Origin: an uncultured Candidatus Saccharibacteria bacterium
GTDB taxonomy: Bacteria > Patescibacteriota > Minisyncoccia > Phycocordibacterales > CAIZLB01
DNA: 63,650 nt
NCBI GenBank assembly: GCA_964627085.1
Contig: CAZVIP010000001.1
Location: 104,114-167,763 of the forward strand
Direction: 5' to 3'
In this document: positions 15,905 to 63,650 of the stretch, one piece after another
How positions within the stretch are numbered: position 1 is the stretch's first letter
How the letters are laid out: the number at the start of each line of letters is the position of its first letter
Translations under genes and position numbers: made by a program
The notes under the pieces: generated by a model
Database searches by the model: none
Told to the model about the DNA's origin: nothing
The model's input: the letters and a program-made list of their open reading frames with translations, nothing else

Positions 15905-16657
15905 TTATTTCTCCAAACCTTTCCACAATACTTTAAATAATTTTTTCTGGAATTCTGCAATCATTTCATTCTCGATTGTAATAACAGAGTTTGAATTGTA
16001 GTCGATGAATGCGACTTTGTTTCCATAAATGACTTCGGATACATCGGTATCGAAGACGTTATATTCATCGGGTATGACACGAACTGATTTTCCAAGACTT
16101 TTGGTAAAGCCTGTGGCTGATTTTTTATCACTGATAATGAATCGCTCGAGGTTTTTTCTATTTCTTTTATGGCGAAAATCTTTTGGTAACAAATGTTCAC
16201 GGGCAACAGTTAGTCGTGGACTATATCTATAATATGTATCATTCGGTTTGAGGCTATCTACAATATCGCTGAACACTGCCGTGATTGATTTTTCACCCTC
16301 AGTAAAAGAGACGATGGGTCTTTTGCCTTTGGTTGTGTACATGGTATTTAGTTTGAAGATCTCAGAGTTAAATTCATCCTCAATTTCATTGAATAGATTT
16401 TCAAGTACTGCAGGAGATTTTGCTGAGTATTGTTTGTTTTTCCCTTTAGGAGTTATTTGTATGAGACCGATCCGTAGTAATTCGTCTATGGCGAGATATG
16501 TTGCAGGTCTATGAATACCTGTTTTGCGAACAATGTCAGAAGGGGATAAAGAGGTATATTCGAGCAGTGTCGTATAAATATGCTCACCGTGAGCACTGAG
16601 GCCGATCTTTTGTAATATCCCATGTCTATCCATGCTTATAGCTTTGGTTTTTTTCAT
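15905..16657 (-). CDS. TrmB-family transcriptional regulator
   Basis: N-terminal winged HTH (YTTLLEYTSLSPSDIVRKTGIHRPATYLAIDELLRIGLI) plus a roughly 150-aa effector-like C-terminal domain. It is a paralog of the gene at 59026..59817. Confidence 0.65.
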   Translation of the reverse strand: MKKTKAISMDRHGILQKIGLSAHGEHIYTTLLEYTSLSPSDIVRKTGIHRPATYLAIDELLRIGLIQITPKGKNKQYSAKSPAVLENLFNEIEDEFNSEIFKLNTMYTTKGKRPIVSFTEGEKSITAVFSDIVDSLKPNDTYYRYSPRLTVAREHLLPKDFRHKRNRKNLERFIISDKKSATGFTKSLGKSVRVIPDEYNVFDTDVSEVIYGNKVAFIDYNSNSVITIENEMIAEFQKKLFKVLWKGLEK

Positions 16658-16894
16658 ATGTATATATTTGTACTATATTAGTACAAATCTAGCCTGTCAA
16701 TCTAAATATCTATTTAAATAATGTGCGATAATTGGCTCTCTCAACCACTGATACTAGTACAAATTAGCGACTTTTCAGAGACAAGAACCCGCCCTAGCCA
16801 TATATTGAATACAGAAAGAGCACATACAGCAAGTTCTTTTGTAAACAATGCTGAATACACCAAACAAAAAACACAGGACGAAGTCCATAACAAT

Positions 16895-17887
16895 ATGAAA
16901 AAAAACACTTTAACCACAAAAACCCTCGACGCTGAAGTCATCGGGAGGTTGGCCCAAAAAATGGAAGACATGGTGAGAAAAGCTATCAGTATCATCCAGG
17001 CCAATGCTCACAATGTGAATCCGGTTTGGAAGCTTGGCTATAACCAAAATGCCGGCGATATACCAGATGACTTTGCTACACAGGGCGACTTTGAAGCCCA
17101 GGAAATGTATCACAGTGAGATAGTTGGTGACCCGCTCTGCGCAGGTTTTGGAATTTTGGGTGAGGAATCACTCAATGTGCCATGCACGCATCAGGATCAC
17201 GATGTCTATTTCACTATCGATCCACTCGATGGCACTAAGGCCTATTGGCGCAAACAGTCGCACGGTGTAGGGACGATGATTGCCTTGGTGGTAAACGATA
17301 TTGTCGTTGCTGTGTGCATTGGCGATGCAAATACAGGTGAAATATACTGTTATGCTATTGACCCGCTGCACCCCAGTGCATATATCGTTCCGCCGACTCG
17401 CATCAGATTCGGTGTGCGCGAAGCGCTTGTCCCTGAGGTGGAAACTGTCTTAGGTTGCAAGTATCTGCATTCGAGAGAGCCTTTGCACAAAATCAGTCCT
17501 GTTATTACAGGTATGGTATGTGGCAAAGGTGATGCGCCGATCTTGTTCAAGGACATTGCGGTTGACGGTGGAAGTATTGGAATTTGTGTTGCCAAGCTCT
17601 GGAAGGGTGAGGTCGGTGCAATTGCCATGCAGACATCTACGCATGAGACACCGTGGGACAGGACTCCGGTAATTGGTATGAATGAAGCCCTTGGTTATCT
17701 GACATTACGCACAGATGAAAACGGTCGCTTCACCCAGTTTGTGCAAAGTCCACAAAAGTATGTCATCAAGAATGCTTTGGGCAGCGGTCACGAGAGCGTG
17801 GATTTGATTATTCACAAGGATAATATCCCACAGCTCAATAGTTGGCTTGCAAGTTGTCAGATGCCGGAGATTAAACTCCTGGCGTAG
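16895..17887 (+). CDS. inositol-monophosphatase / CysQ-family phosphatase (candidate 3'-phosphoadenosine-5'-phosphate phosphatase)
   Basis: Metal-binding motifs ILGEES, FTIDPLDGTKAY and ETPWDRTP (WD motif). The start is an internal ATG preceded by an A-rich region; the upstream part of ORF 16721.. has no coding features. Confidence 0.65.
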   Translation: MKKNTLTTKTLDAEVIGRLAQKMEDMVRKAISIIQANAHNVNPVWKLGYNQNAGDIPDDFATQGDFEAQEMYHSEIVGDPLCAGFGILGEESLNVPCTHQDHDVYFTIDPLDGTKAYWRKQSHGVGTMIALVVNDIVVAVCIGDANTGEIYCYAIDPLHPSAYIVPPTRIRFGVREALVPEVETVLGCKYLHSREPLHKISPVITGMVCGKGDAPILFKDIAVDGGSIGICVAKLWKGEVGAIAMQTSTHETPWDRTPVIGMNEALGYLTLRTDENGRFTQFVQSPQKYVIKNALGSGHESVDLIIHKDNIPQLNSWLASCQMPEIKLLA

Positions 17888-17992: not shown

Positions 17993-18826
17993 ATGATAAA
18001 GGTATATATGGAAAAGAAGTTTTACTTTGTCTCTGGTTTGCCTCGAAGCGGATCAACCTTGCTTATGAATATACTCGCTCAGAACCCACGTTTTGGTGTG
18101 AGTGCTACGAGCGGAATTATGGATATCATGTTTGGTGTCCGAAATAACTGGGATTCCTTGGTTGAATTCAAGGCGCATCCAGATGAGGCTGCAAAAAAAC
18201 GTGTCATCAAGGGTATTTTGGAGAATTATTATGCGACAAGTGACAAACCGGTTGTGTTCGACAAGTCGAGAGGTTGGCTCTCTTTGATCCAAATGTATGA
18301 GTATATTTTTGAAAAAGAGGCCAAAATAATTGTACCTGTGCGTGATATGAGAGATGTGGTCGCGAGTTTCGAAAAACTCTGGAGAGCAAATTCAATGAAT
18401 ACTCAAATACCACAGGAGTCACAGTTTTATTTCGATTTTCAATCTGTCGAGGGGAGGGTAAAAGTGTGGTTACGTCCCGATCAACCTGTTGGGCTTGCAT
18501 ACAATAGAATTGTTGATGCGATTAAGCGGGGTTTTTCAGATAGATTGTTTTTTGTTCGATTCGAAGATTTGACCACTAAACCAAAGGAAACGATGGAGAA
18601 AATATATGCTTTTTTGGATGAGCCAGATTTTGAACATGACTTTAATACTGTAAAGCAGGTGACATGGGAAGATGATGAGGTGCACGGAATCAAAGGTTTG
18701 CATGATATTCGCCAAAAAGTTGAGCCAATCGAATCAAGTTGGAAAAAAACTCTTGGTCCGTTTGCGAAAGATATTGGCAATTTAAACTTTTGGGATACTG
18801 GCAATAGTCCAAATGGAATTTCTTGA
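17993..18826 (+). CDS. PAPS-dependent sulfotransferase-family protein
   Basis: FVSGLPRSGSTLL matches the 5'-PSB loop and IIVPVRDMRDVVASF matches the 3'-PB region. Size is about 275 aa. Confidence 0.7.
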   Translation: MIKVYMEKKFYFVSGLPRSGSTLLMNILAQNPRFGVSATSGIMDIMFGVRNNWDSLVEFKAHPDEAAKKRVIKGILENYYATSDKPVVFDKSRGWLSLIQMYEYIFEKEAKIIVPVRDMRDVVASFEKLWRANSMNTQIPQESQFYFDFQSVEGRVKVWLRPDQPVGLAYNRIVDAIKRGFSDRLFFVRFEDLTTKPKETMEKIYAFLDEPDFEHDFNTVKQVTWEDDEVHGIKGLHDIRQKVEPIESSWKKTLGPFAKDIGNLNFWDTGNSPNGIS

Positions 18827-20494: not shown

Positions 20495-23400
20495 ATGTCA
20501 AAACACAATAAAAAAATCATAAAAATAGTCTCTTTTTTCATTGTGCTTTCGTTTACATTTCTCACAACCACGGCTCAAGCAGCTGTTCCAACACAATCAA
20601 TTGCATTCCATGGTCAACTCACAGCTTCTGGATCTGTGGTTTCTGGATCAAAGTCAATCATATTCCAATTCTACGATGCTTCATCTGGCGGATCTGCCGT
20701 CGGCTCTGCTATTTCAAAAACAACAACTGTTACTAGTGGATATTTCAGTGTAGTTTTCAGTGCCTCAGATCTTTCTAGTGTCGATCTGAATCAAGCTCTC
20801 TGGATTGGTGTCACTGTCGAAGGGGATGTACTTTCTCCGCGTCTTTCGATTAATTCTGTTCCATCTTCTATAAATACTTTTGGAGTTTTTTCATACGCAT
20901 CTGCACCAGCTGTCGGTTCGGCGGGTGCGCTTTATTACAATACCGGTGATTCAAAAACCTATGTATCAAATGGTGCTGCATGGATTGAACTTGGCGGAAG
21001 TCAGTGGACAACAACTGGTTCTGATGTGTATTACAACACCGGAAATGTCGGTATTGGTACCACAACACCAGGGTCAAAACTCGTCGTCGCAGGACAAATT
21101 ACAACTGACGGCCTCGTCAGTCTTTCAACAACAGCGACTTCAACATTTGCAGGCCCTGTCACTCTCGCGAGTCATTGTATCGCAGCAGAGACAAGATTCA
21201 GAAGAAGAAAGAAGGATCAAGACGGTGAAGTCGAAGAGGTCGACCTTGAAGCCCTCGAGATCGGAGACTATGTTGAATCATTCGATGAAACAACTCAAAC
21301 AGTTGTATTCAAGAAGATCGAAAACATTTTTGTTATGGGTATCAAATCAATCATCAAGATTGATACACAAAAAGGATACAGTATTAAAACAACTGAAGAG
21401 CATCCATACTATGTGACAATAGGAGAAGGGGAAAAAGGTCAGTGGGTCAAAGTGAAGGATATATCAGTTGGTGACGGTATTGCAGTTATTGACTCTGCCA
21501 ACCGAACAGTGTTCTTTGATATTGTCACTACAATCTCAAACCTTCCCGAAGAAGAAGTGTATGACCTTGAAATCGAAGGTACACATACATTCATCGCAAA
21601 CAACATTGTTGCACACAATACATATGTACAAGGTGGTCTTGGTGTCGGAGTACTCAACACTTCAGCAGGAACTTTTGCATTGAAACAAGCAACAACCAAT
21701 GCTGTTATCTTGGGTGATGTGTCAGGAAATACGAGAGGAAGTTATGCGCTTGATTTGCAGACGAGGAGATCTGTTGTAAATCAGATAGCCTTTGGAGCGT
21801 GTTCTACTGCGGTTGGAAATGACAATTGTGCATCTGGTTGTCGTTCTGCTTCTTTGGGTTGGGGTAATGCAGCAACAGGGATTTCATCTTTGGCAGCTGG
21901 TAGTAATAACACTGCTTCTGGTATAGATTCTTCCGCTGTGGGTTCCGGCAACTCTGCTTCGGCTAATTTTTCTTCTGCATTTGGTTGTAATAACTATGCC
22001 ATTGCTAGTTGTTCTACGGCATTAGGACTTAGAAATCAGGCTTGCGGTGTTAATTCTACTGCAGTGGGTAGTGTTATTGTCGCTTCTGGTGCGTGTTCTG
22101 TGGCAGTAGGGAATGATAATTGTGCATCTGGTGGTCGTTCTTCAGTTTTTGGTTCTCAAAACACTGCCTCTGGCTACCGTTCTTCGGCTTTTGGATCAAG
22201 TATAATTAACTCGACTGCAAACTCAGTTGAAATTGGAGCCTCAAACACAGAAAAACTCCAAATCTCATCTGCTGGAGTCAACTTTGTCACCGCAGGTGCT
22301 GGTGGGTTCTGTGTAAATGGTGTTGCGATGGGTGGTGATGTAAATAATCTTTGCTCAATTCAGGTTGGTTACTCTAACACTGCTTTTGGTAATAGTTCAT
22401 CTGCTGTAGGTTTTTGTAATAATGCAGCGGCTGTCTACTCTTCCGCTCTTGGTTATTTCAACACTGCATCAGGTTATTATTCAACCTCTGTTGGTCATCT
22501 CAACACTGCGTCTGCATGTTGTTCGTCTGCTCTAGGATCCTGCAACATGGCTTCTGCTAGTGGGTCAACTGCTGTGGGCCAACGAAATACCTCTTCTGTT
22601 ATGAGTTCTTCTGCTTTTGGCTTCGGTAATACTGCATCTGGTTACTATTCTTCTGCAATTGGTTTTAGTAATTGTACTTCTTGTACGGGTTCTACTGCAG
22701 TAGGTTATTGCAATACTGTGTCCAATTATTCTTCTTCAGCTTTTGGATCAAATATAACTAACCCAACTGCGTGTTCTGTTGAAATCGGAGCCTCAAACAC
22801 AGAAAAACTCCAAATCTCATCTGCTGGAGTCAACTTTGTCACCGCAGGTGCTGGTGGGTTCTGTGTAAATGGTGTTGCAGTAGGCGGAGGGAGTGGGGAT
22901 GTAAACGCACTCTCGGTTGTTGCTGTTGGATGTGGTAACAGTTCCTCAGGTACTTACTCTTCTGCTTTTGGAATTAGTAATTCCGCTTCAGGAAACTGCT
23001 CTTCTGCTTTTGGATATGCTAATACCGCTTCAGGATACCGCTCTTCTGCGTTCGGATCAAGTATAAATAACCCAACTGCGTGTTCTGTTGAAATCGGAGC
23101 CTCAAACACAGAAAAACTCCAAATCTCATCTGCTGGAGTCAACTTTGTCACCGCAGGTGCTGGTGGGTTCTGTATAAACGGCTCATTGGTCGGTGGTTGT
23201 TCAAATCCTAACGGACTATCACTTGTTGCTGTTGGATGTGGTAATACGGCATCTGCATACTACAGGTCTTCAGCATTTGGTATATGTAACTCTGCATCGG
23301 CGTGTTTCTCAACTGCAGTTGGTTCAAATATTACCAACTCAGCATCGTATTCTGTTGAAATCGGAGCCTCAAACACAGAAAAACTCCAAATCTCATCTGC

Positions 23401-24940
23401 TGGAGTCAACTTTGTCACCGCAGGTGCTGGTGGGTTCTGTGTAAATGGTGTTGCAGTAGGCGGAGGTGACGTGAATGCACTTTCTACGATTCAGGTTGGT
23501 TGTGCAAATACTGCTTCAGGTTATAGGTCTTCTGCTTTAGGGTACATGAACTGTGTGACAGAAGGCTTTTCGACGGCCTCAGGGTATTACAATGTTGTTT
23601 CAGGTGGAAGCTCGGTTGCGGTTGGAAATTTTAACTGCTCAACCTCTCTTAGTTCGCTTTCAGTAGGTCTTTCAAATACTGCATCAGCACAGTACTCTTC
23701 TAGTGTAGGTATTCAGAATCTGGCTTCAAATCAAGGCTCAGTGGCTTTTGGGTACTGCAACACTGCTTCAGGTTATTGTTCCTCTGCTGTCGGTAATACA
23801 AATACTGTTTCTGGTGGTGGAGCAAGTGGATTCGGTTATGGTAATACTGTCCCAGGTTACCGAGCGACTGCTTCAGGTTATTCAAATACTGCATCTGGTC
23901 AATATTCTGCAGCTTTTGGTTTTTCTAATCAGGCAAATTGTGATAGTTCACTTGTCTTTGGTAAGTGCTTAATAAATGATATTGCCGCTTCGACAATGGT
24001 TGGGCAGGCAGGTGGTTGGATAAGTTTATTGGCTAACGGTGAAATAAATACTTCATCCGGTGCCAGTCTTACATCTGGAGGAACTTGGACAAATGCATCT
24101 GACAGAAATCTCAAGGAAAACTTTGTTGAATTAGACAAAGAAGACATACTTACAAAAATCAACTCACTTCCACTTACAAAATGGAATTACAAGACTGAAG
24201 ATTCTTCTATAATGCATATAGGGCCTATGGCACAAGATTTCTATGCCACATTTGGTCTTGGTGGATCTGATAAGTCTGTATCAACTATTGATCCTGCAGG
24301 TGTTGCGCTTGTTGGTGTGCAGGCGTTGTCAGGAAAAGTTGATAATCTATATGTAGAATTGGGTCTACTTGCGACAAGTACTGATTCAAATTCGAACCAA
24401 GGTGGAATTATCAGTTGGATTAAAGCGCTCGGGGCAACTGTGGTTGATGGTGTTGCACACTTTGTAAATGTTGTTGTTGGAAAGATTACAGCTTCTGATC
24501 TTACAATCAAAAATGAAACTGATGTTCACAAGACTGGTTATGTGATTTATGACCGAGCGACAGGTGCACCACTTTGTGTTTTCTTTGAAAATGGAATTCA
24601 GAAAACTGAACCAGGTGAATGTGATGACTTACCTGTACCTCCTCAGCAAAATACTGGAGGTACTCCAGCGGGTGATACTAGTAGTACCGGTGACACCTCA
24701 AATGCAAGCAGTACAGATTCTGGCGGATCAGGATCAGATACACCATCACCAGGTGGTGATATAGGAGGCGGGGTGACTGATAATCAATCTGATACAGGCT
24801 CTACTCCGGCAGGTGATTCAGCTCCAACGGGCTCATCTGGATCAGATACGCCAACTGTAAATGACCCTGATCCGACACCTGAGCCTACGCCTGCTCCAGC
24901 ACCGGAACTAGGGCCCGCCCCGGCTCCTTCTACTGAATAA
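20495..24940 (+). CDS. 1481-aa secreted adhesin / tail-fibre-like protein: signal peptide, fibre N-domain, inserted Hint (intein/BIL) domain, YadA-head-like SxAxGxxNxAxG repeats, peptidase-S74 intramolecular chaperone domain and a Pro/Thr/Ser/Gly-rich tail
   Basis: Signal peptide MSKHNKKIIKIVSFFIVLSFTFLTTTAQA, NTGNVGIGTTTPGSKLVVAG fibre motif, dozens of 14-residue SSAFG..N.ASG..S repeats, and the SDRNLKENF...HIGPMAQDF S74 signature. Confidence 0.85.
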   Translation: MSKHNKKIIKIVSFFIVLSFTFLTTTAQAAVPTQSIAFHGQLTASGSVVSGSKSIIFQFYDASSGGSAVGSAISKTTTVTSGYFSVVFSASDLSSVDLNQALWIGVTVEGDVLSPRLSINSVPSSINTFGVFSYASAPAVGSAGALYYNTGDSKTYVSNGAAWIELGGSQWTTTGSDVYYNTGNVGIGTTTPGSKLVVAGQITTDGLVSLSTTATSTFAGPVTLASHCIAAETRFRRRKKDQDGEVEEVDLEALEIGDYVESFDETTQTVVFKKIENIFVMGIKSIIKIDTQKGYSIKTTEEHPYYVTIGEGEKGQWVKVKDISVGDGIAVIDSANRTVFFDIVTTISNLPEEEVYDLEIEGTHTFIANNIVAHNTYVQGGLGVGVLNTSAGTFALKQATTNAVILGDVSGNTRGSYALDLQTRRSVVNQIAFGACSTAVGNDNCASGCRSASLGWGNAATGISSLAAGSNNTASGIDSSAVGSGNSASANFSSAFGCNNYAIASCSTALGLRNQACGVNSTAVGSVIVASGACSVAVGNDNCASGGRSSVFGSQNTASGYRSSAFGSSIINSTANSVEIGASNTEKLQISSAGVNFVTAGAGGFCVNGVAMGGDVNNLCSIQVGYSNTAFGNSSSAVGFCNNAAAVYSSALGYFNTASGYYSTSVGHLNTASACCSSALGSCNMASASGSTAVGQRNTSSVMSSSAFGFGNTASGYYSSAIGFSNCTSCTGSTAVGYCNTVSNYSSSAFGSNITNPTACSVEIGASNTEKLQISSAGVNFVTAGAGGFCVNGVAVGGGSGDVNALSVVAVGCGNSSSGTYSSAFGISNSASGNCSSAFGYANTASGYRSSAFGSSINNPTACSVEIGASNTEKLQISSAGVNFVTAGAGGFCINGSLVGGCSNPNGLSLVAVGCGNTASAYYRSSAFGICNSASACFSTAVGSNITNSASYSVEIGASNTEKLQISSAGVNFVTAGAGGFCVNGVAVGGGDVNALSTIQVGCANTASGYRSSALGYMNCVTEGFSTASGYYNVVSGGSSVAVGNFNCSTSLSSLSVGLSNTASAQYSSSVGIQNLASNQGSVAFGYCNTASGYCSSAVGNTNTVSGGGASGFGYGNTVPGYRATASGYSNTASGQYSAAFGFSNQANCDSSLVFGKCLINDIAASTMVGQAGGWISLLANGEINTSSGASLTSGGTWTNASDRNLKENFVELDKEDILTKINSLPLTKWNYKTEDSSIMHIGPMAQDFYATFGLGGSDKSVSTIDPAGVALVGVQALSGKVDNLYVELGLLATSTDSNSNQGGIISWIKALGATVVDGVAHFVNVVVGKITASDLTIKNETDVHKTGYVIYDRATGAPLCVFFENGIQKTEPGECDDLPVPPQQNTGGTPAGDTSSTGDTSNASSTDSGGSGSDTPSPGGDIGGGVTDNQSDTGSTPAGDSAPTGSSGSDTPTVNDPDPTPEPTPAPAPELGPAPAPSTE
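21176..21619 (+). mobile_element. 148-aa mini-intein / bacterial intein-like (Hint) domain inside the adhesin ORF
   Basis: It starts at Cys228 (ASH|CIAAETRF, block A). Block B is KTTEEHPYY (TxxH), block F is VYDLEIEGTHTFIANN and block G is IVAHN|T, with Thr as the +1 residue. There is no endonuclease domain. Confidence 0.8.
22226..23456 (+). repeat. four near-identical in-frame direct repeats of about 100 bp within the adhesin gene
   Basis: Copies lie at about 22226-22327, 22778-22880, 23087-23181 and 23354-23456. Each reads gttgaaatYggagcctcaaacacagaaaaactccaaatctcatctgctggagtcaactttgtcaccgcaggtgctggtgggttctgt... and encodes SVEIGASNTEKLQISSAGVNFVTAGAGGFC.NG. There are only 1-3 differences between copies. 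Confidence 0.9.
24098..24350 (+). other. peptidase S74 (endosialidase-type intramolecular chaperone, self-cleaving) domain
   Basis: S1202-D-R-N-L-K-E-N-F..LTKWNYK..HIGPMAQDF..GVALVGVQAL matches the sDerlKenI...hiGfiAQe consensus as I remember it. Confidence 0.7.
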
Positions 24941-57747: not shown

Positions 57748-57875
57748 TCTGAAATCACCTGAAATTTTCGATGTGATTCACTCATGTGAACACAAAACAA
57801 AACACCATCCGCGAGGGCGGTGTTTTGTTTTCGGTCATTTGCGGTAAGGGTAGGTGGCTTGTATACTTTGACTAT

Positions 57876-59099
57876 ATGAAAGAAATGCCAATCCAGAGAT
57901 TTGATGTCGGACAAGATGGGGTGTCAGTACAAGAGTCAGGTAGTCAAGATAATTCAGAAAAAGAAGCAGAATTTAAACGCTGGGCAAGTACCGAGTTAGA
58001 TATTGGATTAGGTGCACTTTCTCCGCATGAGGTTTTTTATACAAGAAGAGCTTATGAATCAAGTGACGATCAAGGGAAGAAAAATCTCGGACATTTCCTC
58101 GGGCACTATGAGATCGCGGGGTCTGCTGTGCTTGTGGCCGCAGAATACCATCCTGAAATTACCAATACCTTGGTCTCTGGTTTTGCTACAGGAAAAGGTA
58201 TTACTGGTGATGAACTATATGGACAGGCTGCAACAGAGAGCTTTTATGTGTACGAAAGGACGCAAAAGGGCAAGGAATTTCGTGCAATGCTCCAAGAGTT
58301 CAGTCTTCTGTTCTCATCAATTGAGGATGTAACTGCTTTGATTTCAGAATCAGATTTGGACTGTGATAAAAAAGCGCTGAGTGAGCAGCTGTTTGAGGCT
58401 TTTGCTCGAAAGGGTGCAGATTTAGTTAAATTTTTTACCATGATACAGGAAGGTGATCTGCGCGCAAGTGAATACAATGTTGAGGATGTGAATACAGCGA
58501 TGAAGGCTTATTCAAGAACTCTTTTATTGCTTAGAAATTTCTTTTACACCGATTTGAGGGAAAACGGTGCACAGAAATTTGAAAAATACCCCGTCAAGAA
58601 AGGTCAGTCACCAAAATATAAAGTTACTGATAAATTTACTGGTTTTGTAAGTGAGATGAAATGGTTTATTCGACCACAGGCAGACAAAGATGGACAGGCA
58701 CGTATAAGTGTTGAGATTAATTTTGATACAGAGAGCCCAGATCCTGCATTCAAAGAGCTTTTTGAACAAACAACTACAAGACTTAAAGATGGCCAGGCTA
58801 TAAAGGAAGAAAAAAATAGCACATTTAGATTGAGTGTAGATAGGGATACAACTAATCCAGAGCAACCAATTGTGTCGCTTGATATTGGTAGGGCACAGTT
58901 TTCGGGTACAACATTTATACGTACCGGTGATAAATTTGGAAATATGCTCGCAACTGTTTCAACAGAGGCAAACCATACACCTTTTTCATTTGATCCAAAC
59001 TTTGCACAAGAAGACATCTTTGGATCTATCGCTTCAAAATTTGAGCAGTATATCTCTGGCCCTCAGACCACAGAATCTCAAACAGAGCATCAAATGTAG
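57876..59099 (+). CDS. hypothetical protein (407 aa), no recognisable family
   Basis: Starts after a hairpin/T-run at about 57800-57832 that follows rplK. No motifs recognised. Confidence 0.5.
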   Translation: MKEMPIQRFDVGQDGVSVQESGSQDNSEKEAEFKRWASTELDIGLGALSPHEVFYTRRAYESSDDQGKKNLGHFLGHYEIAGSAVLVAAEYHPEITNTLVSGFATGKGITGDELYGQAATESFYVYERTQKGKEFRAMLQEFSLLFSSIEDVTALISESDLDCDKKALSEQLFEAFARKGADLVKFFTMIQEGDLRASEYNVEDVNTAMKAYSRTLLLLRNFFYTDLRENGAQKFEKYPVKKGQSPKYKVTDKFTGFVSEMKWFIRPQADKDGQARISVEINFDTESPDPAFKELFEQTTTRLKDGQAIKEEKNSTFRLSVDRDTTNPEQPIVSLDIGRAQFSGTTFIRTGDKFGNMLATVSTEANHTPFSFDPNFAQEDIFGSIASKFEQYISGPQTTESQTEHQM

Positions 59100-59817
59100 T
59101 TTTAATATCTGGGTTTTGGATAATTGTAGTCACAAGGAATTCTCCATATGAAGTTAGGGCAACTTTGTCACCATAGATAATGATCTGAGCAGGGATTGAA
59201 AGTTTTTCTTTTGGTAATAGCACACGATTAACGTTTCGTGTGGTGTCTTCGGTCTTCATTGTTATTTCACTATCTTTTTCATGTGGGGTGATGGCTCTTG
59301 CTTCAATGCCTGCTGCAATTTGCTTTTTGATTTGTCTTTCAACAAGTGCGGCTAGCTCAGGTCCTTTATTGTCAAAAGGAGAGCGAATCAGTTTGATCGG
59401 TTTACCTTCTAGTAGGATATCTTCATATAAACTCTCGATACCAGCAATGCCTTCAAGGAAGCGGGTATTTGGCCTACCTGAATACATATTGTAATCAGAG
59501 ACCATGCTGCCGAGTACGGTATTCAGGCTCTTTTCAGCTAGATTTAAGGTTTCCTTTCGTTTTTCTATAGTTTCCGTGAGTTTTTGTGGATGGGCAGGGG
59601 AAAAGAGCGCCACCTTCTTATCTATCTTCTCGATAAGGCCCAGTGCTAGTAATTGGTCTATTACCTTGTAGCAGAGGCCTCTTTTCATATTGCTTAATTG
59701 ACTGATTTTACGAGCGGGGAGCACGCCATTTTTGAGGAGGATTTCATATATTTGTGATTGTTCAAGGCTAAGTCCTGCACCTGCAAGGAAGTCTTTGTAT
59801 ATATTTGTCATATTCAT
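59026..59817 (-). CDS. TrmB-family transcriptional regulator (paralog of 15905..16657)
   Basis: Winged HTH LSLEQSQIYEILLKNGVLPARKISQLSNMKRGLCYKVIDQLLALGLIEK plus a C-terminal domain. Its 3' end overlaps the convergent gene by 74 nt. Confidence 0.65.
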   Translation of the reverse strand: MNMTNIYKDFLAGAGLSLEQSQIYEILLKNGVLPARKISQLSNMKRGLCYKVIDQLLALGLIEKIDKKVALFSPAHPQKLTETIEKRKETLNLAEKSLNTVLGSMVSDYNMYSGRPNTRFLEGIAGIESLYEDILLEGKPIKLIRSPFDNKGPELAALVERQIKKQIAAGIEARAITPHEKDSEITMKTEDTTRNVNRVLLPKEKLSIPAQIIIYGDKVALTSYGEFLVTTIIQNPDIKTTFDALFEILWSEGQRYTAQILKR

Positions 59818-60667
59818 ATGACAATAATATCATTATTTTAGTATGATGCATAGTAAATAAGGGTATTATGTGGATAACTTTTGTCATAAAGTGTCACAGA
59901 CATGTTGACAGTACCGCATACGCATGTTATCGTATTGTCAGAACATAAGGGAACAAAAGGATAGCTAAAAGCAACCAGATGAACCTAAACGAAGAACATT
60001 ACAAAAGAGGTGAATAAAAATTTGTTTCTCAAACTCTGATTTAGCTATATTGTCTCATTCAATAGAACGCAGACAGTTTAGTTAGAAGGTGACCACAGCC
60101 GGTAAGTGTGGATAGAGGAGAGAGTGAGAGAAATGTAGGGTGTAGACATCAGGCTTTGATACATTGATCTGATTTGGACAAAATTCAAATCAGACAATCG
60201 GTATCTTGGTTGGATCATCCATTCTTGAAAACCAAATTTTTGAACATCTATTTCCAATTTGAATCGGCGACTTGCACAAGGGCTCGGAAATCCCAAGCAA
60301 CAAGCCTCGACCTATAAGGAAGATTCAACAAACGATTACTTGATATACCAGCTCTGTGTCCTTTGTCTAAAAACATTGAGATATACATGGAACATATCGA
60401 GGGGATATCGTGGGTATCAAAGACTTAACCACTCTTGGATATCTAAATATCCCATTTGGATAACTTTCTGAGGAGAGAGTAACCAAAATCGAGGGATAGT
60501 GAGACGATCGCGTCGCACTATGGATTTTGAAAATTTCATAATTCAATATCTTTGACACGAGTAATACTTGTGAACAAACAAAGGTGGCGAATACCTAAAA
60601 CAAACAGCGATGCACCAAAGTGATGCTAAGAGGTTTGTTTTGTAAGTACTGAATACTGATTCAGTGT

Positions 60668-60837
60668 CTTATTCACCCCGCAAACAATTGTTGGGTGATA
60701 AGTTCAAACCGGGAGGCAACTCCCAATACACTTCTTGTTGTGTATATAAAAATGTAGGTCAACAAAAAACAGAATCCTACAAAAAACAAGAAACGACGTT
60801 TTCAACCGCGTCGAGAAATAAAGGGGGAAGTATTGTT
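60668..60837 (+). repeat. 170-bp leader module L, copy 1 (upstream of small gene A)
   Basis: cttattcaccccgcaaacaattgttgggtgataagttcaaaccgggaggcaactcccaatacacttcttgttgtgtat...gaaacgacgttttcaaccgcgtcgagaaataaaggggg. It is near-identical to 62549-62718 apart from small indels that break any common reading frame. Confidence 0.85.
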
Positions 60838-61143
60838 ATGTTTAGTTTTTTAAAACGTTTCTTTGGAAAAAAAGCTGCAGGCAAAGTTCAAATTCAGCCC
60901 CCTACTTGGGTGACTGCTCCTAAGCAAGAGGGGTGGGATGCCTCAATACAGGTTGCTCGCATCGACCCTGTCGATGCGAGACGCTGGGCAGATAAACTCA
61001 GTTCACCAGCTGTTCCATACTGGTTCAGTGCTGTCGGAACCGATGAGCAGCACTGTCAGCAGTGCACGGCTACGGTCTCATTGAAGGAAGGGGCTTCACT
61101 CGAAGAGATCAAGGGATGGGTTAAAGAAAATTACCCTGCTTGA
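60838..61143 (+). CDS. small hypothetical protein A (101 aa), N-terminus MFSFLKRFFGKK
   Basis: An ATG preceded by aaggggg, 9 nt upstream. GC-rich coding. It shares only its first 5-6 codons with gene C. Confidence 0.55.
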   Translation: MFSFLKRFFGKKAAGKVQIQPPTWVTAPKQEGWDASIQVARIDPVDARRWADKLSSPAVPYWFSAVGTDEQHCQQCTATVSLKEGASLEEIKGWVKENYPA

Positions 61144-61149
61144 TTGGTC

Positions 61150-61206
61150 ATCCCGCGTCACCTGCAAAGTGGTGAGTTTTATTTGTTGGCAAACAAACAG
61201 TTGGTT
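61150..61206 (+). repeat. trailer module T1, copy 1
   Basis: atcccgcgtcacctgcaaagtggtgagttttatttgttggcaaacaaacagttggtt contains the hairpin tcacc-tgcaaag-tggtga and recurs at 63593-63650. Confidence 0.8.
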
Positions 61207-61479
61207 CAGGGGATTAATTCCTCCGACGCGCACCATGGTGGTGCAACTGAGGGAAGCGCGTAAGTCTTCCCTCAAATTATTCAGGATGAAAGCGTAACGT
61301 TTTTATCCTGATAGTTTTTTATTCATATGACATTCATATTTCGACAGGTGAAGAGCGGGGATACTAGTGCCCGCTATCTCCACCTGTTGAGAATCTATTC
61401 AAAGACAGTTAACAACAAAACAAAACTGTTCTGCGATCCAAAAGTGGTCGCAGGTGTTTTTGATAGGTGGAATTGATAT

Positions 61480-62400
61480 ATGTATAAATTCGCTTTACTC
61501 GATCCACGGAGCATCCCAGCCGCCGGCGAAGCCAATGATAAGGTGTTCGTTGATTTAGTTTACGGTATCGAAGTTACAGTGCCTGCTCTCGCAAAGCGCT
61601 GCGCCTTCAACCTCGACCCCCAACACACTGGCGGTGACGCCGGCCGTGCAGCTATCGAAGATGCGATGATGGTCGAACTTCCCAGCGAGGATTACACTCT
61701 CGCGACAGTTCGTCCTGATTTGGATGCGATAGGCACCATGGCAATCTTCAATCTTCGGGCAAAAGGCGAAAGTCTTGAGTCTGTAATGGAGCGAGTTGTA
61801 ATGGTTGCCAATGCCGACAAGTTTGCACGCGGCGGTTACACTGGCCCGAAGCCCCTCCCAACACGGGACAACCCGTGGGACGAAAGCTCGGCAACGGCCG
61901 AGTCTTCACGTCCGCTCGCAGCAATAGCATCAGCGGTCATGGACTTCAAGGTCTCGGTGACCGACCGCGTCGCCGTGATGGAAAAATGGTTGTTGAAAGG
62001 TGAGGAACCTCAACAATATCGCGAATCCGTTGAGAAGGAGCGGCTTGATTTAATCACCGCACTCGAAAGTGGAGCGATCAAATACGAGACTTGCTCCGAA
62101 GGCAGAATTGCGGTGGTGGAGAGCACCCATCGTGCAGCTACCCTGGTTGGCTACTCGTTAGCTCCAGTGGTGATCGCGCGCAACCCGGCCTTCAAGATGG
62201 GTGGTGGCGAGGCGCATGTGAAATTCACAGTCTGTGCCTTCGAGCCGAAGTTTGCAGATATCAAGTCTGCACTCGCCGAACTCGCAACACTCGAGGCTGG
62301 ATGGGGAGGGTCTCCAACGATTGGCGGTTCTCCGCAAGGGGTTTCTTCAACGCTTACTCTTGACCAGGTGATCGAAGTGGTGAGTCGTCACCTCAAATAG
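61480..62400 (+). CDS. hypothetical protein B (306 aa); weak DHH/DHHA1-like phosphoesterase features
   Basis: GC-rich ORF (35/60 in the line starting at 61621). Possible metal motifs are NLDPQH and RPDLDAIG, and a C-terminal GWGGSPTIGGSPQG is reminiscent of the GGGH motif region. This is weak evidence. Confidence 0.55.
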   Translation: MYKFALLDPRSIPAAGEANDKVFVDLVYGIEVTVPALAKRCAFNLDPQHTGGDAGRAAIEDAMMVELPSEDYTLATVRPDLDAIGTMAIFNLRAKGESLESVMERVVMVANADKFARGGYTGPKPLPTRDNPWDESSATAESSRPLAAIASAVMDFKVSVTDRVAVMEKWLLKGEEPQQYRESVEKERLDLITALESGAIKYETCSEGRIAVVESTHRAATLVGYSLAPVVIARNPAFKMGGGEAHVKFTVCAFEPKFADIKSALAELATLEAGWGGSPTIGGSPQGVSSTLTLDQVIEVVSRHLK

Positions 62401-62416
62401 TTTACTCAACGTGGAC

Positions 62417-62553
62417 ATGAGTTTCTCTTTTCTCATAAATAGAAAAAAATAGATGCCCTACACAAGAATGTGGGTTGGACGCTGAAATGCGTTTTGTAAA
62501 ACTGGCTTGGTAGCCGGTGCTTTCGCAGAATTCAAGAAAATTCTGCATCTTAT
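62417..62553 (+). repeat. module R2, copy 1 (about 137 bp), fused directly to leader L copy 2
   Basis: atgagtttctcttttctcataaatagaaaaaaatagatgccctacacaagaatgtgggttggacgctgaaatgcgttttgtaaaactggcttggtagccggtgctttcgcagaattcaagaaaattctgcatcttat recurs at 63045-63181 with about 4 substitutions. Confidence 0.85.
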
Positions 62554-62718
62554 TCACCCCGCAAACAATTGTTGGGTGATAAGTTCAAAACCGGGAGACA
62601 ACTCCCAATACACTTCTTGTTGTGTATATCAAATGTGGGTCAACAAAAATAGAATCCTACAAAATAACAAGAAACGACGTTTTCAACCGCGTCGAAAAAT
62701 AAAGGGGGAATAATAAGT
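62549..62718 (+). repeat. leader module L, copy 2 (upstream of small gene C)
   Basis: See copy 1. It ends with aaataaagggggaataataagt followed by GTG. Confidence 0.85.
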
Positions 62719-63039
62719 GTGTTTAGTTTCTTAAGAAAATTTATTGACAACGTAAGTGGGAAGTGGGTCGTAGAAATCACAACAAAATCCAACCAAGGTG
62801 ACACTATCCTGTGTCGCCTAGGTTGTCAGAGAGAAGGTGTCACAGGCCCATTGAGGCCTGTATTCGTCCGTGGTGTGACTCTGGCAGAGGAGGTGGTAAA
62901 AAAGATAAACATACACCTCCAACAAAATGAACAGTGGACTGCATGTAAGGCAGTTGCCACTATCAGGCTGGCAACCCCAGAGGAATCTCGGGTTGCGATC
63001 GAATATTGCTGCTTAAGGGGTAGCGTAATTCTTGAGTAA
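62719..63039 (+). CDS. small hypothetical protein C (106 aa), N-terminus MFSFLRKF (GTG start)
   Basis: Same leader and same first codons as gene A, but an unrelated body. Confidence 0.5.
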   Translation: MFSFLRKFIDNVSGKWVVEITTKSNQGDTILCRLGCQREGVTGPLRPVFVRGVTLAEEVVKKINIHLQQNEQWTACKAVATIRLATPEESRVAIEYCCLRGSVILE

Positions 63040-63044
63040 TACAA

Positions 63045-63181
63045 ATGAGTTTCTCTTTTCTCATAAATAGAAAAAAAGAGATGTCCTACACAAGAATGTG
63101 GGTTGGACGCTGAAATACGTTTTGTAAAACTGGCTTGGTAGCCGGTGCTTTCGCAGAATTCAAGAAAATTCTGCATCTTAT
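63045..63181 (+). repeat. module R2, copy 2
   Basis: See copy 1. Here it is followed by unrelated sequence instead of leader L. Confidence 0.85.
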
Positions 63182-63239
63182 CCGGAACATAATTTCTTAA
63201 AGCTCAATAGTATGAGACGAGAAATTGTGATTCGGTAGG

Positions 63240-63590
63240 ATGAAAACCTATGTCAAATCAAATCGACCACGTGGATACAATCGCGGGTACAAAGGGGAAG
63301 ATCCTTTGGGTGGTATGAAAGTCTTGCTTTGCAGGATGTTTGAGGTCTCTGGAATAATTTCCGGAGACACCCAGGTAAAGTTTGGCAAATTTTGCCAAAC
63401 TTTCGAGGAAGCACAGGGCTTCCCTCCAGAGCCTGGGGTGTATGTCGCCGACTTGACCTCGACCGAGGTCAAGGAAGTCACCCTTAAAGAGGGTGACACG
63501 GCAGAGGCCCTACTGGATCGGATGCAGACAAACCCCATCGGAGGATTGGAAACCTGGGGCGACTGGCTTCAGAGGTTGGTAAATCTCTAA
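63240..63590 (+). CDS. small hypothetical protein D (116 aa)
   Basis: GC-rich ORF followed 3 nt later by trailer T1 copy 2. Its C-terminal VTLKEGDTAEALL resembles VSLKEGASLEEI of protein A. Confidence 0.5.
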   Translation: MKTYVKSNRPRGYNRGYKGEDPLGGMKVLLCRMFEVSGIISGDTQVKFGKFCQTFEEAQGFPPEPGVYVADLTSTEVKEVTLKEGDTAEALLDRMQTNPIGGLETWGDWLQRLVNL

Positions 63591-63592
63591 TA

Positions 63593-63650
63593 TCCCGCGT
63601 CACCTGCGAAGTGGTGAGTTTCATTTGTTCGCAAACAAACAGTTGGTTTC
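63593..63650 (+). repeat. trailer module T1, copy 2 (runs to the window edge)
   Basis: atcccgcgtcacctgcgaagtggtgagtttcatttgttcgcaaacaaacagttggttt. Confidence 0.8.

Follow-up and report, generated by a model that had tools for sequence, protein, structure and literature searches.

Promoter-early stem-loop (PeSL) cassettes have been described in the hyperplastic regions of T4-type phages (Arbiol et al. 2010, PMC2839356; Comeau et al. 2014, PMC4122927). PeSLs are short conserved sequences with terminator stem-loops that recur between small, non-essential and mostly ORFan genes, and recombination from one copy to another has been proposed to account for insertions, deletions and replacements of these genes (PMC2839356, PMC4122927). 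Structured elements in consecutive intergenic regions are also known from the DUF1874 RNA motif (Weinberg et al. 2017, PMC5737381). The locus discussed here is an array of small genes separated by reused non-coding modules, found at the end of a 63,650-nucleotide stretch of DNA (the window) from an uncultured Candidatus Saccharibacteria bacterium (GenBank assembly GCA_964627085.1, contig CAZVIP010000001.1, here C1). The window is the last 63.6 kb of C1, and the genome is a metagenome bin of 0.9 Mb in 23 contigs with about 40% GC. Patescibacteria, to which this organism belongs, have tiny genomes, lack genetic tools and carry many genes of unknown function. The ways in which they acquire, express and rearrange accessory genes are, to our knowledge, poorly understood. 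The modules, designated L, T1, R2 and lead2, are more conserved than the genes they enclose. With moderate confidence, they are proposed to punctuate expression and also to mediate recombinational shuffling, in a manner similar to PeSLs but in a bacterial chromosome.

The part of the array that is contained in the window is made up of the following features.

60648..60837, plus strand: module L, copy 1, with hairpin Ha (60648-60665), hairpin Hb (60668-60702), three more hairpins and the Shine-Dalgarno sequence AAAGGGGGAA
60838..61143, plus strand: gene A, an orphan of 101 amino acids (aa), paralog of gene E on contig C7 (27% identical, BLASTP 6e-08)
61144..61320, plus strand: module T1, copy 1, six hairpins, the first and last with a U-run behind them and terminator-like
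61321..61479, plus strand: leaderB (conserved part 61336-61479), the own conserved 5' leader of gene B
61480..62400, plus strand: gene B, 306 aa, predicted DHH/DHHA1-fold protein (AlphaFold2 and Foldseek)
62401..62548, plus strand: module R2, copy 1, four hairpins, the last of which (62525-62546) doubles as the Ha of the next L
62549..62718, plus strand: module L, copy 2, from the repeat alignment
62719..63039, plus strand: gene C, an orphan of 106 aa with a GTG start and only its first 7-9 residues in common with A and E
63040..63176, plus strand: module R2, copy 2, 98% identical to copy 1
63177..63339, plus strand: module lead2, an Hb-type hairpin and a conserved start region, 90% identical ahead of gene F
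63240..63590, plus strand: gene D, an orphan of 116 aa (or about 88-91 aa from a later start), paralog of F (BLASTP 9e-33, 50% identity overall)
63591..63650, plus strand: module T1, copy behind D, cut by the contig end

An alignment of the repeats found the L, R2 and T1 families where a first-pass annotation, made from the letters alone, had placed them, and in the order that it gave (L-A-T1, then B-R2-L-C-R2, then D-T1). L occurs at 60668-60853 and 62549-62734 (92% identical, with small indels) and R2 at 62417-62553 and 63045-63181 (98% identical). T1 occurs at 61150-61320 and 63592-63648, and the second copy, which is cut by the contig end, has 95% identity across the 57 nt present. The copies of L stay near-identical through the Shine-Dalgarno sequence and the MFSFL(K/R) codons, which read MFSFLKR in A, MFSFLRK in C (with its GTG start) and MFSFLKK in E. 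An extra hairpin, Ha, precedes every copy of L and differs in sequence from copy to copy. The modules are non-coding, have a GC content of 39-45% and are all in the sense orientation. They flank one gene body after another in varying pairings, L going with T1 and with R2, leaderB with R2, and lead2 with T1. T1 had been represented by one hairpin, which is present, but the module as a whole has six hairpins and a length of about 175 nt.

The contrast between the modules and the genes is considerable. The modules are about 88-98% identical, whereas the bodies reach about 50-56% nucleotide identity under forced global alignment. The L copy before A and that before E are 96.5% identical although the A and E proteins are only 27% identical, and R2 is 98% identical behind B and C, which are not homologous. 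T1 copy 1 is 86-88% identical to the copies behind E and F. Lead2 covers the first 33 codons of D (63240-63339); D and F are 90% identical across the module and about 30 codons from the start, and beyond that point nucleotide identity is about 56%. Identity stops sharply at both borders, at codon 7-9 past L and at about codon 31-33 past lead2. At the other end of the genes, T1 starts at the stop codon or within about 6 nt of it, and between A and E a weaker identity (about 80%) reaches about 60 nt into the coding end before T1. The gene bodies had been described as unrelated. This holds for C, which has no homology to A or E, and for B and C, but A and E as well as D and F are paralogs.

Within the 0.9-Mb genome, copies of the modules are confined to this locus, i.e. 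the end of C1 and the start of C7. BLAST searches with L and T1 in 60 relatives gave nothing real, and exact-word scans, of Genome Taxonomy Database (GTDB) representatives for T1 and of Joint Genome Institute (JGI) metagenome contigs for L, gave no accepted copy. A single L match in the JGI contigs was rejected because it falls in an unrelated GC-rich coding region, and a single T1 match in the GTDB genomes (Terasakiella) was rejected as chance by judgement, the match itself not having been inspected. T1 was not found in IMG/VR. When all modules were compared by nhmmer with about 15 loci that carry gene B, leaderB alone matched.

Each module is predicted to fold into a string of four to six short, independent hairpins. 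The hairpins named in the first-pass annotation are present and are predicted to fold (gggag-gcaa/acaa-ctccc, cgacg...cgtcg, gcagaatt-caagaa-aattctgc and, in T1, tcacc-tgcaaag-tggtga). RNA folding z-scores are -4.8 for T1, -3.4 for L and -2.2 for R2, and the Ha+Hb unit of L copy 1 reaches -4.6. At least seven of the eight gene-to-gene junctions, folded separately, form Ha+Hb with z-scores of -4.6 to -9 and with stem sequences that differ. The unit begins with post-stop hairpins, which are followed by a terminator-like Ha and then Hb, and it finishes with a leader, a Shine-Dalgarno site and the opening 6-8 codons of the gene. Depending on the setting, the stems of Ha are CTGAAT/ATTCAG, GCAGAATT/AATTCTGC, GGAGAAC/GTTCTCC or GAGGGAAG/CTTCCCTC, with a U-rich linker behind. 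Hb has a fixed base, (C/A)TTAT(T)CA...TGATA(A/G), i.e. TTATTCA...TGATAR, and a free upper stem, which is CCCC/GGGG in L, GGATGAAAGCG/CGTTTTTATCC in the T1 copies behind A and E, AAAT.../...ATTT in the T1 behind F and CCGGAA/TTCGG in lead2. By predicted fold, T1 ends in the same hairpin element with which L starts, so that a single unit is common to all inter-gene regions; read in this way, these regions derive from one ancestral unit. The possibility that Hb is a genome-wide protein-binding or REP-like (repetitive extragenic palindromic) motif was rejected, as its base motif has 40 matches in the genome and 18-45 in shuffled sequence.

Additional features of the modules concern the RNA. RNAalifold pairs with compensatory change number 6 in T1, 4 in the Ha of L (among its copies) and 7 in leaderB (among three genomes). 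The sense strand folds better than the antisense strand by 2-15 kcal/mol in 10 of 12 module copies, which points to RNA of the sense strand as the form that would fold. Terminator-like sites, consisting of a hairpin and a U-run, are enriched three- to four-fold (9 against 3.1 expected, and 11 against 2.6 expected). Two of them are in T1 copy 1 (61156-61175 and 61281-61311) and another is in R2. The idea of a shared promoter and leader stands in part: the leader fits, but no sigma70-like promoter was detected in L or any other module, the sole good match being located at the head of the island (59905-59933). Rfam searches gave only chance-level matches and no ribozyme for 59800-63650 at E<=1, and no ribozyme for C7:1-12000 at E<=0.1. 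Taken at the level of sequence and predicted fold, these data establish the modules as conserved, structured and strand-specific elements at gene borders.

How could flanking sequences come to be better conserved than the genes between them? It is suggested that the modules act at two levels. In RNA, they would end or cut the message behind each gene, protect the message ends with hairpins and supply a standard translation start. In DNA, the near-identical modules could serve as homology handles for unequal crossing-over and gene conversion. These processes would duplicate cassettes, as may have happened with A/E and D/F, and would place one leader or trailer on bodies that are not related to each other (L on C and on the GNAT gene, R2 on B and on C). 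They would also keep the module copies alike even as the bodies drift apart or are exchanged. A conserved head precedes the array, with a gene named up437, a divergent TrmB-family regulator, a sigma70-like promoter that faces the array and about 750 nt of leader, which is free of open reading frames (ORFs) and contains two GAGGAGAGAGTRA boxes. We infer recombination between modules because duplication followed by decay can explain neither why the flanks are so much more conserved than the genes nor why genes with no relation to each other have flanks in common; that the mosaic of modules needs recombination, and not duplication and decay only, is the economical explanation of the alignments. 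The earlier proposal of modular recombination thus fits the mosaic pairings and the sharp boundaries. It fits less well with the restriction of the modules to one locus and with the decayed paralogs A/E and D/F.

The window end falls inside the array. Extension past position 63650, as had been advised, showed that the array goes on at the start of contig C7 (L010), where a cut L is followed by gene E (117 aa), T1, a GNAT acetyltransferase, lead2, gene F (214 aa) and T1. The full order is L-A-T1 / leaderB-B-R2 / L-C-R2 / lead2-D-T1' / L-E-T1 / GNAT / lead2-F-T1. The array is about 5 kb long with seven genes (A, B, C, D, E, the GNAT acetyltransferase and F), and the window holds its first 3 kb. 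Past the final T1 of C7 there is a small ORF and then the core genes folA, thyA, dCMP deaminase, glyA and argS. A strong bidirectional terminator-like hairpin (C7 2290-2331) lies at this far edge of the island, as does a Cys-rich orphan ORF of 113 aa and 47% GC (C7 2366-2707), ahead of folA, thyA, dCMP deaminase and glyA. A phage or plasmid accessory array had been considered, but the island, about 9 kb in size, is chromosomal, with rplK on one side and folA/thyA/glyA on the other.

The joint between C1 and C7 merits some discussion. Many contig ends in this assembly are joined by exact overlaps of 55 nt, and the assembly therefore appears to derive from a de Bruijn graph with k=55. Overlapping ends were seen for C3/C17, C4/C14, C4/C21, C8/C13, C10/C19, C11/C20, C15/C16, C21/C23 and C1/C7, and such overlaps could serve to scaffold the bin. 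The start of C7 is a 55-mer of the L before A, and the end of C1 is a 55-mer of the T1 copy behind E; the final 55 nt of C1 are identical to C7:423-477. By itself, this sharing of 55-mers could be compatible with a tandem array or with a bubble of two alleles. In an independent assembly, ENA contig L026 runs from D through the first 100 nt of T1 and a new hairpin, GGAGAACGCGAAAAGTTCTCC, to L, E and T1. It thus holds a unique T1-to-L joint, the D-T1(short)-L-E arrangement that the tandem order needs, which decides between the two in favour of the tandem array. The first 135 nt of L026 are a leader of the F type, which may reflect mis-threading through an exact repeat of 75 nt. Independent Logan and ENA contigs from other runs (including L020-23) match T1-leaderB-B-R2 and L-C-R2-lead2-D with 99.7-99.9% identity, and L-C-R2-lead2 on ENA contig L023 is 99.7% identical to the window. 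Sequence of this organism occurs in Logan contigs of ERR4853120, ERR4853122 and ERR4853127 and in the ENA assembly ERZ15610084. Since independent contigs reproduce the junctions at this identity, the array is, as far as these comparisons go, not an assembly artefact.

The genes A to D are taken as coding because the chance of an open frame of such length in random sequence of 50% GC is below 1% per gene. Every ORF exactly occupies the gap between a Shine-Dalgarno site and start and the next module. The first-pass annotation gave a GC content of 50-58% for the region and 38% for the backbone. The contrast is real but smaller, as the bodies have 45-55% GC with third-position GC (GC3) of 0.43-0.56 (54.8% and 0.56 for B) and the core genes about 40% GC with GC3 of 0.30-0.37. 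Searches of Pfam, PHROG, PADLOC and NCBIfam gave nothing significant for A, C, D, E, F, G or up437. A search with A and E among 5.8 billion proteins found no homologs beyond the window genome's own genes, and a protein search with F likewise found only the genes of this genome. Among 1.84 billion representatives, D and F matched the window organism's entries P0121, which is F, and P0124 (88 aa), which appears to be the short form of D as called on L026. The remaining D/F matches are weak, are to large proteins with several matched stretches and were judged spurious. Structure prediction was of little help for D/F, as the AlphaFold2 models reached a mean predicted local distance difference test (pLDDT) score of only 52.

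The starts of some of these genes are tentative. The gene caller begins D' on L026 later, at a TTG, which results in the 88-aa product. An ORF of 22 codons in another frame (63252-63320, MSNQIDHVDTIAGTKGKILWVV) was noticed inside the 5' part common to D and F, and the stop codon of this ORF shares nucleotides with an in-frame ATG of D (ATGA). The start given for D and F is thus provisional, and the small ORF may be an upstream ORF whose translation is coupled to theirs. The GNAT acetyltransferase ORF (C7 635-1066) has a native-like GC3 of 0.30, unlike its neighbours. Its true start is probably the internal Met11 (MFSLIKK...), where the DNA (ATGTTTAGTTTAATAAAAAAA) matches the start region of L in decayed form. 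The MFSFLKK start was considered as a general trait of such arrays and rejected, as it is found in this array only, with near-variants in the genomes G236 (MLSFFKK) and G292 (MFS...).

For gene B, a fold could be predicted. The AlphaFold2 model (pLDDT 86, predicted template modelling score 0.81) has a two-domain DHH and DHHA1 fold. The top Foldseek matches are a PAP phosphatase (8a8k), RecJ2 (7ykv) and an exopolyphosphatase (2qb6), with probabilities of 0.97-1.0, and NrN (9lq9) and PggH (7d62), with 0.94-0.95. No match to B was found in Pfam, NCBIfam, PHROG or PADLOC, and a PDB profile search gave nothing relevant. The invariant columns of the family include RxDLDAxG, a DxD-type motif that reads RPDLDAIG in B, and a glycine-rich C-terminal GWGGSPxIGGSPQG; no canonical DHH triplet was recognised in them on reading the alignment. 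There are more than 680 homologs at 60-83% identity, and those with a named source are labelled Patescibacteria, Paceibacterota or Minisyncoccales. Within the order, gene B occurs in 11 of 401 genomes and in none of its own family, and the best match (83% identity) is in a genome of another family, G286. GC3 is 0.56 here and 0.68-0.78 elsewhere, and B is GC3-rich in every lineage examined. From this comparison of sequences, gene B is a widely transferred anchor gene of such arrays and not lineage-specific cargo. A tblastn search of GenBank phages and PLSDB plasmids found no copy. A profile search of IMG/VR gave distant relatives (26-43% identity) on four predicted viral contigs of 19-173 kb (L052-L055), near which no ribozymes were found; L052 has about 50% GC overall and its B-like gene 56-58%.

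Gene B also has a leader of its own. In leaderB, the inner pairs of a long hairpin, UCGACAGGUGAAG...CACCUGUUGA, show compensatory change, and behind it a terminator-like hairpin with U5 abuts the Shine-Dalgarno sequence GGUGG. The nhmmer matches are located directly upstream of B in G236 (8e-09) and G226 (5.5e-06), and the element is present in three genomes of three families, the copies outside the window being at L050:7250-7405 and L042:7495-7675, both on the minus strand. Rfam has no match for leaderB. Its layout suggests an attenuator or a riboswitch-type element that has not been described before.

Other arrays with gene B have been found to contain ribozymes. In G286 (L041, C15 6161-7393), which has the closest B, a 115-nt repeat stands on either side of the gene, and its two copies match the type III hammerhead with E-values of 8e-05 and 0.17 in a region-restricted search. 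Both copies are below the Rfam gathering score because of a 39-nt insert in stem II, and the stronger copy has an intact core, CUGAUGAG...CGAAAC. Hammerhead III is also located beside gene B in L018 and L019, the site in L019 being upstream of B. Leaders or trailers are reused between neighbouring genes at further B loci (L013, L041, L043, L044 and L050). In the present array, T1 and R2 are found in the position that hammerheads have around B in G286.

Upstream of the array, the island begins with three features.

57786..59099, plus strand: up437, a 437-aa orphan, the first gene of the island
59026..59817, minus strand: a TrmB-family regulator, divergent from the array (PF01978, E 2e-10, 40.8 bits, cut-off 25.6)
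59818..60647, plus strand: an ORF-free head region of about 850 nt with a sigma70-like promoter and two boxes

The promoter at 59905-59933 faces the array and reads TTGACA-17-TATCGT with a TG. The two purine boxes, GAGGAGAGAGTGA at 60115 and GAGGAGAGAGTAAC at 60470, are found nowhere else in the window genome. The head region has an RNA fold z-score of -4.0 and no Rfam match, and it may be a long leader RNA or a region bound by the regulator. G236, which belongs to another family, has the same head, with a homolog of up437 (37% identity), a TrmB homolog (51%) and a promoter, TTGACG-17-TATACT, at the equivalent place. The equivalent gap of 860 nt in G236 (L050:8386-9246) has the boxes GAGGAGAGAGTGA and GAGGAGAGAGTAAC in the same order, and the first gene of its array begins MLSFFKK, with 16 of 18 nt identical to the start of A. 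Decay of a former copy of this first G236 gene (212 aa) was considered as the origin of the 850-nt gap and rejected, as tblastn gave no signal. The G236 protein, which lies beside the TrmB/B array, is the sole homolog of up437 that was seen; up437 is absent from 40 relatives, including those of the same genus. Homologs of TrmB with up to 51% identity are located beside gene-B arrays in L013/14, L017, L042, L045 and L050. Because the head is shared with G236 and TrmB homologs adjoin gene B elsewhere, the island as a whole would seem to be transferred as one unit behind a head that is conserved. The elevated GC3 of the genes, the patchy distribution of B, the absence of up437 from relatives and the occurrence of the head and leaderB in G236 and G226 point to horizontal acquisition of the island.

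Two further regions of the window were noted. A second TrmB-family regulator (15905-16657, minus strand) is divergent from a GC-rich gene (16721-17887, 47% GC), in which we read a DPLDGT motif of the inositol-monophosphatase/CysQ type, and the gene behind it (17993-18826) is presumably sulfotransferase-like. The segment 15905-18826 would thus be a second pairing in the window of TrmB with a compositionally odd, putative nucleotide-phosphatase-like gene. A repeat-rich surface-type protein of 1481 aa is encoded at 20495-24940; it has a Hint/intein-like insert (CIAAETRF ... THTFIANNIVAHN) at about residues 245-390, after which there is a long region of repeats with a 42-nt period.

Several other explanations of the array need to be weighed. 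A chimera of strain variants, produced in assembly or binning and with A/E and D/F as alleles, is scarcely credible. Shared 55-mers at the C7 start and C1 end are a signature of a bubble as well, and the genome is a metagenome bin in 23 contigs, but both copies of L and both of R2 lie within a single contig and the independent assemblies reproduce the junctions, including the joint in L026; the first-pass concern about chimerism is thus not borne out. Plain local tandem duplication of L-gene-T1 and lead2-gene-T1, followed by fast evolution or decay of the bodies while the flanks were held as constrained regulatory sequence, with no ongoing exchange, was named at the outset as the finding that would overturn modular recombination. 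It draws on the paralogy of A/E and D/F, the presence of the modules at this locus only and the single ancestral unit behind all junctions, and these points stand. It is nevertheless considered unlikely, since L stands before three bodies that have no relation to one another (the A/E family, C and the GNAT gene, the last with a decayed L), R2 follows the unrelated B and C, and L is paired with both T1 and R2. The drop in identity inside the coding sequence is abrupt and not gradual, and L copies at 96.5% identity beside genes at 27% would require coding sequence to evolve far faster than the non-coding DNA adjacent to it.

Insertion of miniature mobile elements between existing genes is highly improbable, whether of miniature inverted-repeat transposable elements, of repeats resembling REP or bacterial interspersed mosaic elements, or of hairpins mobilised by a Y1 transposase. 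The modules are indeed hairpin-rich, near-identical and situated at gene boundaries, and a Y1_Tnp fragment occurs near gene B on another contig (L019). However, there are no copies elsewhere in the 0.9-Mb genome, the Hb base motif is not enriched, the orientation is always sense and L bears a Shine-Dalgarno site and first codons; terminal inverted repeats or target duplications were not noted, though no specific search was made for them. A site-specific cassette system of the integron type, in which the folded modules would be recombination sites in single-stranded DNA, has very little probability. A conserved head followed by variable cassettes, a gene B that is common across families and structured elements in consecutive intergenic regions, as with the DUF1874 motif (PMC5737381), are what such a system would offer. 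There is, however, no IntI-type recombinase at the array head, and the only PF00589 match in the genome (C1:61486-61971) is about 100 kb away. The earlier statement that integrase, attC symmetry and reverse transcriptase are lacking was confirmed across the genome, with no RVT match. The modules consist of short independent hairpins and not of one long imperfect hairpin with R and L boxes; their predicted folds have no long-range pairing of the ends and, on reading the sequence, no GTTRRRY core was seen at the boundaries. Unlike attC sites, they also contain Shine-Dalgarno sites and start codons.

A broader proposal, judged quite unlikely as a whole, is that of a Patescibacteria-specific cassette platform that works without an integrase. 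A head with TrmB, the outward promoter and a leader RNA of about 750 nt with two GAGGAGAGAGTRA boxes would drive exchangeable single-gene cassettes, whose borders would be set at the RNA level by hammerheads in some lineages and by T1, R2 and L here. The modules would be a new processing or self-cleaving class, or the substrate of a dedicated nuclease, as well as the homology by which cassettes move. The cargo, a DHH-type nucleotide-cleaving enzyme and fast-evolving orphans with an M-F/L-S-F-L/F-K-K start, would serve in conflict with phages or with hosts. Punctuation of expression together with recombination between modules is the preferred explanation, and several points weigh against it. 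The modules are known from this organism only, which leaves exchange between genomes by means of these modules hypothetical, and no exchange event or alternative arrangement was seen, except possibly the 135-nt end of L026, which may be mis-threaded. The covariation counts are small, with two to four copies per module, and recent copying alone would likewise result in modules of high identity. If the hairpins with U-runs terminate efficiently, the downstream genes are left with no obvious promoter; the hairpins may terminate transcription, be processed or both, and the genes may be transcribed together from the head promoter, with processing, or one cassette at a time. High GC3 might also come from something other than foreign origin.

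The locus is important in that three layers can be seen in it, a transferable head, a DHH-fold anchor gene with its own leader, and orphans set in modules that are more conserved than the genes. If the modules are true points of punctuation and exchange, their leader, Shine-Dalgarno and start region and terminator could provide portable expression parts for bacteria that cannot be cultured. The orphan proteins and the uncharacterised DHH-fold family are candidates for roles in conflict or signalling.

Comparison with known systems helps to place the array. A diversity-generating retroelement was considered and rejected; RVT_1 has no match in the genome, the repeats are non-coding and, by inspection, their differences are not adenine-specific. 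Gene B shares its predicted two-domain fold and a DxD-type motif with the DHH/DHHA1 phosphoesterases (NrnA-type pAp phosphatase/nanoRNase, archaeal RecJ2, PggH and NrN) but differs from them in having no Pfam or NCBIfam match and no recognisable DHH triplet. The array resembles integrons in having, behind a conserved head, small and mostly unknown genes of foreign composition that all run in one direction, with folded repeats between them. In integrons the attC sites are conserved in structure only, whereas the repeats here are nearly identical and come with a leader and a Shine-Dalgarno site for each gene. Gene blocks flanked by clustered hammerhead or twister ribozymes likewise have structured sense-strand elements in consecutive intergenic regions, and the hammerhead-flanked one in G286 has the same anchor gene B. 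They differ in that the modules here have no ribozyme core or Rfam family and end in a hairpin and U-run, like an intrinsic terminator.

The comparison with PeSLs involves more differences in detail. The modules here are longer (140-190 nt, with 4-6 hairpins), are of several types (L, lead2, T1 and R2) and include a Shine-Dalgarno site and first codons. A PeSL cassette has a strong sigma70-like promoter, but none is recognisable in the modules. PeSLs are known from phages, whereas this array is in a Patescibacteria chromosome and was read from sequence, with no mini-circles or strain differences observed. What the two have in common is the arrangement itself, near-identical short regulatory repeats with terminator-like stem-loops between bodies that are mostly ORFan and unrelated. 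If the modules do punctuate and exchange genes, the PeSL principle would extend to cellular chromosomes and would be linked to the ribozyme-flanked arrays of related bacteria.

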